From Escherichia coli (GTDB taxonomy: Bacteria; Pseudomonadota; Gammaproteobacteria; Enterobacterales; Enterobacteriaceae), in assembly GCF_050320075.1 (NCBI RefSeq), contig NZ_CP190018.1: 64,000 nt of DNA, one strand, 5' to 3'. Below the pieces are notes generated by a model. It saw only the letters and a list, made by a program, of their open reading frames with translations, did not search any database and was not told where the DNA came from. Below, one piece after another: positions 15,576-18,290 of this stretch (the stretch's first letter is position 1; each line of letters starts with the position of its first letter). The position numbers were made by a program, and so were the translations under genes.

Positions 15576-15583
15576 GACCAACT
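15576..15583. repeat. Left copy of 8-bp flanking direct repeat GACCAACT, candidate target-site duplication of the IS66-family element
   Basis: 7 of 8 bases identical to 18283-18290 (GACCAACA). Confidence 0.6.
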
Positions 15584-15613
15584 GTAAGCGACTCGTCAGA
15601 ACCGTATTGATAT

Positions 15614-17185
15614 TTACTGAGAGCTCAGATCAACTTTCCAGGGCAACAGATCGCGTACCCGGTTTGCCGGCCAGTCCTGGATATGTTCAATGACGTAACG
15701 CAGCCACTTTTCTGGCTCCACATTGTTCAGACGGCATGTGCCGATCAGCGAGTACAACACCGCCGCATGTTCACCACCGCTGTCGGAACCCGCGAACATC
15801 CAGTTTTTCCGGCCTACGGCCACTCCCCGTAAGGCGTTCTCTGCGATGTTGTTGTCGATTTCCACCCAGCCATTACTGCAGTACACGTTCAGTGCATCCC
15901 ACTGTTTCAGCAGGTATGCGAACGCTTTTGCCGTATCTGAGTGACGCGACAGTGTTTTCATCTGTTGCTGTATCCAGTCATACAGTGACTGCATCAGTGG
16001 CGCGGCTCTGGCTTTTCTTGCCGCCAGACGCTGTTCTGCTGAACAGCCCCGGACCTCTGCCTCGATGGCATACAGTTCACCGATACGCTGCAGGGCTTCC
16101 GTGGTGATGTAGGTGGGCGCTCTTGCATGCACATCGTGGATTTTTCTCCGGGCATGAGCCATACACGCGGCTTCCGTTATTCTGCCGGATTCGTATAACG
16201 CCCGGTAACCACCGTAAGCATCGGCCTGAAGCACACCGCTGTAACCGGCCAGGTGATTTTGTGGATGGATACCTTTCCGGTCCGGACTGTACGCGAACCA
16301 GACCGCCGGGGGCATCTGTGAACCGGCGTTACGGTCATCACGGACGTAGACCCACAGCCGGGCTGTCCGGGTTTTACCGCTGCCCGGCTCCTGGACCGGG
16401 ACGGGGATATCATCAGCATGGACTTTACCGGGCATCAGCACATACTGGCGCAGGACGTCATACAGCGGCTCCAGCAGTTCAGCAACAGCACCTGTCCAGC
16501 GCCCCAGTGTGGCACGGCTCAGCTCCACTCCCTGACGACGGTATATTTCTGACTGGCGGTATAACGGCAGATGGTCTGCATATTTCCCGGTGACAACATG
16601 GGCCAGAAGCCCCGCTCCGGCATAACTGCGTGCAATGGGTTTTGAAGGTACTGGTGCCTGCACGATATGGTCGCACCGGCAACAGGCCTGTTTCGGACGT
16701 TGTGTTTCGATAACCTTAAAGGCGCTGCTGATAAGCTCCAGTTGCTCTGACACATCACATCCCAGAGAACTGAGTTCACCACCACAGGCAGGACAGCATT
16801 CCTCTTCCGGCCGGATAACCCGGGTTTCACGGGGAAGTGAGGCCGGTAACGGTTTACGGGCTGAAGACTGGCGCAGGGCGGATGGCAGTACCGGGTCATA
16901 TTGCTCACCCAGCGTTTCCGCCATTTCTTCCTGAAGTGCGCTGATTCGCTCCTGTGCTTCCTGTATCTGCCGTTCGGTTTTTGCACGAAGTTTTTCTGAG
17001 CTTTTACCGAACTGCATACGTTGCAGTTTCGCAACCAGCGCCTTCAGCCGGTTGATTTCGGAAGCATAAGCCGCCACCCGCTGTGAGAGCAGGCGGTTGT
17101 ATTCAGCCATCTGGCGGATGGTGTCCTGTTGCGTCTGCAACAGTGCCCGCAGGCGGGCGTTCTCATGAGCAAGTGAGGTGTCCAT
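15614..17185 (-). CDS. IS66-family transposase (orf3/TnpC)
   Basis: 523-aa ORF with N-terminal coiled-coil, CxxC zinc-finger region and IS66 transposase core. Confidence 0.9.
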
Positions 17186-17204
17186 ATCCTCACTTTACAA
17201 CGGG

Positions 17205-17552
17205 TTATATGCGGATTCCAGCGCGTTCCGTTCGTTTCGGGTGCTTCCAGTTGATACCTTCAAGAAGCATGGATAACTGAGCCGGAGTAAGGTGCACCTT
17301 GCCGTCACGGGTGACTGGCCAGACGAAGCGGCCCCGCTCCAGGCGTTTGGTGAAGAGGCACAGTCCGTCACTGTCAGCCCACAACACTTTTATCTGGTCA
17401 CCCCGGCGTCCGCGGAAGATGAACAGGTGTCCGGAGAACGGGTCATCCTTCAGGACGTTCTGAACTTTTGATGCCAGGCCGTTAAAGCCATTTCGCATAT
17501 CGGTGATACCTGCAACCAGCCAGATACGCGAACCTGCAGGGAGAGATATCAT
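17205..17552 (-). CDS. IS66 Orf2 (TnpB-like accessory protein)
   Basis: 115-aa ORF typical of IS66 orf2; 1-bp overlap with the upstream ORF. Confidence 0.88.
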   Translation of the reverse strand: MISLPAGSRIWLVAGITDMRNGFNGLASKVQNVLKDDPFSGHLFIFRGRRGDQIKVLWADSDGLCLFTKRLERGRFVWPVTRDGKVHLTPAQLSMLLEGINWKHPKRTERAGIRI

Positions 17553-18229
17553 CAGTGGCTGCTCCCTTTTATTTCGCGGATAAGTGTCTGTAATAACGCC
17601 GGCGTCAGTTTACCTTTAAGCCTGAGAGTTCCGGCCGGCAGAACCAGCTCACAACACAGACTGTCGGACGGTGTATTTATCTGCTCTGGTTCCTGTGCGG
17701 GGGCCGGGATTTTATTATCCGGCTCCGGCGTTAACGTCACGGGAAGCAGTGCCGGCATATTTTTTCCGGAAGGCAGCAGGCCACCTTTCCGGTATTGATG
17801 GCGCCAGTTGAAGAGCAGGTTATCGTTGATTCCGTTTTCCCGGGCGATCTGCGCCACACAGGCTCCGGGCTGCAGTGACTGCTCCACTAAGGCGATTTTA
17901 AACTCATAAGGGAAGTTGGGCCGCCGGGGACGTTTTTTTACCACGGGGGCTTCGGATATAACGGTGCTTTCAGGACGTACGACTGGTACCGTGGAAAATT
18001 GTCCGTAAAGGCAGGCATCAAGTTCCTGCTCCGACATGCCTGCGGGCAAAGGCCACGAAAGGCCAGCTCTCCGAAAGCGCACGAACATACTACAAACTGT
18101 TGATTTTGGTACACCCAGGCGACGCCCGGCCACAACCCGGGGTAAATGTTCTTCAAAGTGAAGACGTAAAGCTTCAGTGATCCAGGTCCGGTGTTTCATA
18201 CGATAGTGTCCATTAAAAATGATGGACAT
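17552..18229 (-). CDS. IS66 Orf1 (TnpA-like helix-turn-helix protein); start uncertain
   Basis: Position and overlap pattern typical of IS66 family; the ORF is longer than usual for orf1, so the true start may be internal. Confidence 0.7.
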   Translation of the reverse strand: MSIIFNGHYRMKHRTWITEALRLHFEEHLPRVVAGRRLGVPKSTVCSMFVRFRRAGLSWPLPAGMSEQELDACLYGQFSTVPVVRPESTVISEAPVVKKRPRRPNFPYEFKIALVEQSLQPGACVAQIARENGINDNLLFNWRHQYRKGGLLPSGKNMPALLPVTLTPEPDNKIPAPAQEPEQINTPSDSLCCELVLPAGTLRLKGKLTPALLQTLIREIKGSSH

Positions 18230-18282
18230 TATTTTTGTAGAGCCGGAGGAAACAGACCAGACGGTTTAAATGAGCCGGTTAC

Positions 18283-18290
18283 GACCAACA
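18283..18290. repeat. Right copy of flanking direct repeat (GACCAACA)
   Basis: See 15576-15583. Confidence 0.6.

Follow-up and report, generated by a model that had tools for sequence, protein, structure and literature searches.

The segment at 15584-18282 of the window (the whole stretch of 64,000 nucleotides of Escherichia coli DNA that was analysed, from contig NZ_CP190018.1 of assembly GCF_050320075.1) is a complete copy of the insertion sequence ISCro1, an IS66-family element, lying on the minus strand with a length of 2699 bp; it is ISCro1 itself and not a new relative. The best explanation for its presence, to which we give a probability of about 0.95, is a single transposition into the octamer GACCAACA in one lineage, with no gene interrupted. 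In this reading, one complete ISCro1 copy transposed into this octamer, at a target 40 bp past the terminator of the copper-resistance gene pcoE, in a chromosomal pco/sil island that borders on yhiM and whose end lies some 200 bp away, and the insertion made the 8-bp target duplication that is typical of the IS66 family. The window thus holds an ordinary, already annotated ISCro1 insertion, which matters little in itself, as a most likely neutral marker of one E. coli lineage with a chromosomal pco/sil island. The finding of two different IS66-family elements at the same two positions matters more than the insertion, and the repeated arrival of such elements at this spot, with single-base precision, is the only part that in our view deserves follow-up.

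To name the element, we looked for near-identity to named copies over the whole length. All 2699 bases of 15584-18282 are identical to ISCro1 copies on many E. coli and Salmonella plasmids, with zero differences from the copies on three unrelated plasmids (L009, L010 and L012), and a total of 975 plasmid records carry an ISCro1 copy at an identity of at least 99%. The name itself is taken from the RefSeq annotation of the matching plasmid copies (“IS66-like element ISCro1 family transposase”), and the published description of ISCro1 gives the same length of 2699 bp together with an 8-bp target duplication (PMC12115866). For membership of the IS66 family, we considered the type of transposase, the accessory genes, the inverted repeats and the 8-bp duplication, and all four were found in the window element. 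The 3 genes lie on the same (minus) strand in the order tnpA-tnpB-tnpC: tnpA (17552-18229) encodes an IS66-like accessory protein of 225 aa (NCBIfam NF038385, IS66_access_TnpA; 295.8 bits against a cut-off of 150, E-value 1e-88), tnpB (17205-17552) an IS66 accessory protein of 115 aa (NF033819, IS66_TnpB; 128.9 bits against a cut-off of 50, E-value 5e-38), and tnpC (15614-17185) the IS66-family transposase of 523 aa (NF033517, transpos_IS66; 477.9 bits against a cut-off of 180, E-value 2e-143). The stop codon of tnpA overlaps the start codon of tnpB by one base (TGATG), and tnpC starts 19 nt after tnpB. The match of tnpC to its model spans model positions 5-386 of 387, and the identical tnpC copy in L009 is annotated as WP_000381395.1. 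As all three products score above curated cut-offs, the first-pass annotation, which had described an intact IS66-family element with three open reading frames from the letters alone, was right on this point.

IS66 and IS679, the founding members of the family, have three genes, imperfect inverted repeats starting with GTAA, and 8-bp duplications, and ISCro1 has all of these in common with them. Its TnpA is longer than theirs, however: the 225-aa protein matches the 190-position model NF038385, and the shorter model NF047595 is matched by its C-terminal half only. Compared with ISCro1 as first named in Citrobacter rodentium, the window copy has the same sequence, genes, ends and 8-bp duplication, and it differs from other ISCro1 copies solely in that its own duplication agrees at 7 of 8 positions. 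With its open reading frames and ends intact, and identical to the commonest copy, the window ISCro1 is probably still active.

The imperfect terminal inverted repeats that had been noted from the sequence proved to be a pair of 22-nt arms, of which 16/22 positions (73%) are complementary: IRR, at the tnpC end, is GTAAGCGACTCGTCAGAACCGT (15584-15605), and IRL, at the tnpA end, is GTAACCGGCTCATTTAAACCGT when read on the minus strand (18261-18282), the two arms starting with GTAAGCG and GTAACCG. Directly outside these arms lie the two copies of the target-site duplication, GACCAACT on the left (15576-15583) and GACCAACA on the right (18283-18290). They agree at 7 of 8 positions, as had been reported, and agreement at 7 or more of 8 positions between two random octamers has a calculated chance of about 4e-4. 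The right copy is identical to the empty-site sequence, while the last base of the left copy, at 15583, is a T where the target has an A. For the boundary test, the query was ISCro1 extended by 20 bp at either end, and an even sample of the plasmid matches was taken. Most full-length plasmid matches span query bases 21 to 2719, which correspond to window positions 15584 and 18282; a match reaching one base into the left flank was seen in about a quarter of the copies, which is the level expected by chance. As the similarity to unrelated ISCro1 copies begins only at 15584, the T at 15583 lies in the flank and outside the element, and the candidate reading in which it belonged to ISCro1 was ruled out on the same ground. 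Since unrelated copies lose similarity at exactly 15584 and 18282, the boundaries hold, and the reported direct repeat does not stem from wrongly placed ends.

A simple insertion is confirmed by genomes in which the site is empty. It had been claimed that 15458-15583 and 18283-19179 were originally contiguous, with the suggestion to align the joined flanks to other genomes in search of empty-site alleles. We therefore constructed a joined-flank query by taking ISCro1 and one repeat copy out of the flanks, and found that empty alleles are common and that the flanks are continuous in them. R478 and many other IncHI2-type plasmids align with the query as one uninterrupted match through the junction, as far as window position 18487, and 569 complete E. 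coli genomes likewise align with it as one match over 80% or more of its length, at the same chromosomal location beside yhiM. The sequence ...GTATCTGACCAACACTGTCACG... was read once in R478 and in each of four E. coli chromosomal loci, namely three empty alleles and E. coli 025542-1, in which another ISCro1 copy lies 23 bp further right. The octamer GACCAACA is present once in 4/4 empty alleles read. In the three empty chromosomal alleles that were fetched, the two flanks share exactly 8 bp, and the right one extends unbroken to window position 19179, where an IS1 copy starts in the window. With the flanks directly joined in these alleles and overlapping by 8 bp there, the event is shown to be a simple insertion with an 8-bp duplication. 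Alternatively, two ISCro1 copies could have recombined homologously and so placed the flanks side by side, or a deletion adjacent to the element could have done so. Products of this kind do exist elsewhere, as L010 carries an ISCro1 copy with unrelated octamers on its two sides, and as copies of another IS66-family element, ISKpn24, have unrelated right flanks at the pcoE locus. For the window copy, however, the alternative is already refuted by flanks that are adjacent in the empty alleles read and that overlap by exactly the 8-bp target, and we give it next to no credence.

Within this simple insertion, the mismatch in the left copy asks for an explanation. The A-to-T change relative to the target GACCAACA affects the base that abuts the end of ISCro1, and it would have arisen during or after integration, through a gap-filling error, through a donor-flank nucleotide on the non-transferred strand, or through a later point mutation. 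The 697 bp of island flank contain only one other difference from R478, and we estimated that a later mutation would fall on an IS-abutting base in roughly 2 in 700 cases per substitution. Given that single other difference, an origin in the transposition itself is more likely than a later mutation, and the mismatch therefore probably dates from the transposition event. It is also conceivable that the duplication is really 7 bp long (GACCAAC), with the T at 15583 brought along by the element, either as an ISCro1 end base or as a nucleotide of the donor flank. This reading finds some support in L013, in which the ISCro1 insertion is best read as a 7-bp duplication (CTGTTCC), and in the independent copy in 025542-1, which also has a T beside the same end of the element. 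On the other hand, most unrelated copies stop matching at 15584, with a T preceding that position in only about a quarter of them, as expected by chance, and 7 of the 10 independent ISCro1 insertions that we read have perfect 8-bp duplications. The other three are L013, L010 with its unrelated flanks, and the window copy with 7/8; the clean 8-bp behaviour of ISCro1 is also seen in the published work (PMC12115866). We consider a true 7-bp duplication unlikely for these reasons and keep to the 8-bp reading, in which a single carried-over donor nucleotide is a possible origin of the T.

Two of the loci read in this comparison have features of their own. L013 (CP082637.1) and L014 (NZ_CP068043.1) are F-type plasmids with independent ISCro1 insertions, about 15 bp apart and in the same orientation, just upstream of traD, the duplication in L013 being the apparent 7-bp one. 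In L010 (CP057156.1), an ISCro1 copy identical to that of the window lies between the unrelated octamers ACGGTTAA and GTTGATTC, which suggests recombination between ISCro1 copies or an adjacent deletion.

With regard to the genomic setting, pcoE is the last copper-resistance gene of the E. coli chromosomal island and ends at 15457. It is followed on the plus strand by an intrinsic terminator at 15508-15535, a GC-rich hairpin and then a run of 8 T, with the target of the element 40 bp beyond. To the right of ISCro1, the segment that had been treated as one flank can be divided further: 18283-18487 still belongs to the island, and 18488-19179 to the chromosome on the yhiM side. In its last 55 bp (18433-18487), the pco/sil island carries a 16-bp direct repeat in two copies (TACAACTTTAAWGTCT) and ends in ...ACA, and no similarity to the plasmid-borne islands extends beyond 18487. 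These repeats and the TGT/ACA terminus suggest that the island ends as a Tn7-like transposon does. The ISCro1 insertion sits in non-coding DNA and interrupts no gene. Further to the right, an IS1 copy is present at 19180-19947, and the 5' parts of yhiM and of the next gene (DUF4049) are missing in comparison with 025542-1 and WCHEC020031, which points to a deletion of some 2 kb here in association with IS1. Among the empty-site genomes, L004 (NZ_CP178552.1, strain WWCOL-236) has an internal pco deletion that fuses fragments of pcoD and pcoS, and pcoR is missing.

We then determined how widespread the insertion is. ISCro1 was found in the region downstream of pcoE in 3 of 5,426 complete E. coli genomes, and the exact insertion of the window in only two of the 5,426, YZLc1-3 (chicken, China) and Ec-U3 (human urine, Burkina Faso). 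Between these genomes and the window there are 2 base differences in 15.7 kb and 0 in 6.7 kb, and both also have the neighbouring IS1 rearrangement, so that the presumed deletion is common to the two genomes with the same ISCro1 insertion. Judged from these sequence comparisons, the insertion marks a single E. coli lineage. The proposal that the insertion is relatively recent agrees both with this narrow distribution and with the absence of any divergence of the element from unrelated plasmid copies. When further ISCro1 copies were sought in a collection with one genome per species, a single truncated contig was returned: L008 (SFEB01000082.1), which is 3.2 kb long and assigned to a “Clostridiales” metagenome-assembled genome. 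It gave the sole exact match to the ISCro1 end in that collection and is probably enterobacterial DNA that was mis-binned.

IS elements in general can alter the expression of their neighbours through outward promoters, and the first-pass annotation had suggested that outward-reading ends could affect the genes next to this copy as well. This suggestion was not borne out: we found no sigma-70-like site in ISCro1 or reading out of its ends. A consensus promoter scan of 15300-18600 returned nothing within the element, and the only site that it did return, at 18561-18588, lies outside it. An effect through outward promoters at the ends would draw on the general capacity of IS elements and on the direction of tnpC transcription, which points towards pcoE with no terminator seen before the end of the element. 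Set against this are the lack of any promoter-like site in ISCro1 in the consensus scan and the arrangement of the neighbours: the ISCro1 genes converge on pcoE, which retains its own terminator about 40 bp before the element, and the DNA to the right consists only of about 200 bp of island end and an opposite-strand yhiM fragment that is cut by IS1. Moreover, in the one published test found, the effect of ISCro1 was a reduction, as its insertion in the afa regulatory region of ST131 E. coli lowered afaA transcription and promoter activity (PMC8764528). We therefore regard a change in neighbour expression through outward promoters as very improbable. A neutral insertion is most likely, as it disrupts no gene and is restricted to one lineage. 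It does make one more ISCro1 copy available for recombination between IS copies, and ISCro1-mediated plasmid fusion has been reported (PMC12115866).

While the insertion itself is ordinary, its position is one that IS66-family elements have used repeatedly. In E. coli 025542-1, the ISCro1 copy 23 bp further right has the same orientation and a perfect duplication of AGATAACT, an octamer that is unoccupied in the window (18306-18313); because this copy differs from that of the window at two bases, it represents an independent event. On the Klebsiella plasmid pCAV1042-183, ISCro1 lies 12 bp after the same terminator, again in the same orientation, with a duplication of AATAATAA and a different downstream sequence. 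The second element, ISKpn24 (IS66 family, 2454 bp), resembles ISCro1 in its tnpA-tnpB-tnpC layout and its GTAAGCG termini, while the nucleotide identity between the two is only about 68-75% over the parts that align. ISKpn24 is found at the same two positions on the pcoE side: in two Klebsiella plasmids it joins the pcoE-side flank immediately behind GACCAACA, and in about 91 other Klebsiella plasmids and one metagenome contig immediately behind AGATAACT. The contig came from a scan of metagenomes for IS66-type junctions at the pcoE locus, which otherwise yielded one chance match. Unlike ISCro1, ISKpn24 at this locus always has the opposite orientation and unrelated DNA on its far side, which points to later rearrangement, and no ISKpn24 copy in PLSDB is a simple insertion between two copies of GACCAACA. 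Plasmids of a further class resemble the empty site for only 12 bp past AGATAACT; nine bases on (21 bp beyond AGATAACT) begins the end of a third IS66-like element, which is itself cut by ISKpn24.

We estimated the probability that both ISKpn24 junctions fall on both ISCro1 positions by chance at about 5e-5, under the assumption that any position in the roughly 190 bp from the terminator to the terminal repeats of the island can accept an insertion. Together, these loci (18283-18313 of the window, and L002, L017, L018, L019, L021 and L023) lead us to lean, with some reserve, towards the view that the approximately 60 bp after the pcoE terminator form a natural, base-precise insertion hot spot for IS66-family transposases. 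If this is true, the 60 bp would be a ready test substrate for how the IS66 family picks its targets.

We know of no target rule for the IS66 family, and literature searches for the way in which IS66 elements choose targets, for ISKpn24 beside pco and for recurrent insertion at this site returned nothing relevant. A comparison of the 8-bp targets of ISCro1 (GACCAACA, AGATAACT, AATAATAA, GAGCAGAG, GCTTCTGG, CAATTTCC, TAATAATC, CTTTTATC and the published TAACCTTT) revealed no consensus among them. As the pco octamers have no consensus with the other ISCro1 targets, a local feature other than the octamer sequence would have to guide the choice, and two candidates for such a feature were considered and rejected. 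The first was a motif resembling the IS ends (GTAAS or STTAC) near the target, which was found within about 25 bp at about 2 of 8 loci, against about 1.6 expected; the IS-end-like sequence GTAACGCC lies between the two pco octamers. The second was a hairpin or cruciform at the target, for which the empty site, folded as single-stranded DNA, gave -4.8 kcal/mol, with z = +0.7 relative to shuffled sequences. Finally, pKpQIL-type plasmids showed an apparent 20-nt match to the flank, which was set aside as these copies occupy a different target, GGATCAAA, between repE iterons. One such locus is L022 (NC_025131.1, pBK30683), with ISKpn24 between the iterons next to repE and a perfect duplication of GGATCAAA; the DNA that follows ISKpn24 there (TGTGACGAAC) is loosely like the DNA that follows the pco target (CTGTCACGTAAC).
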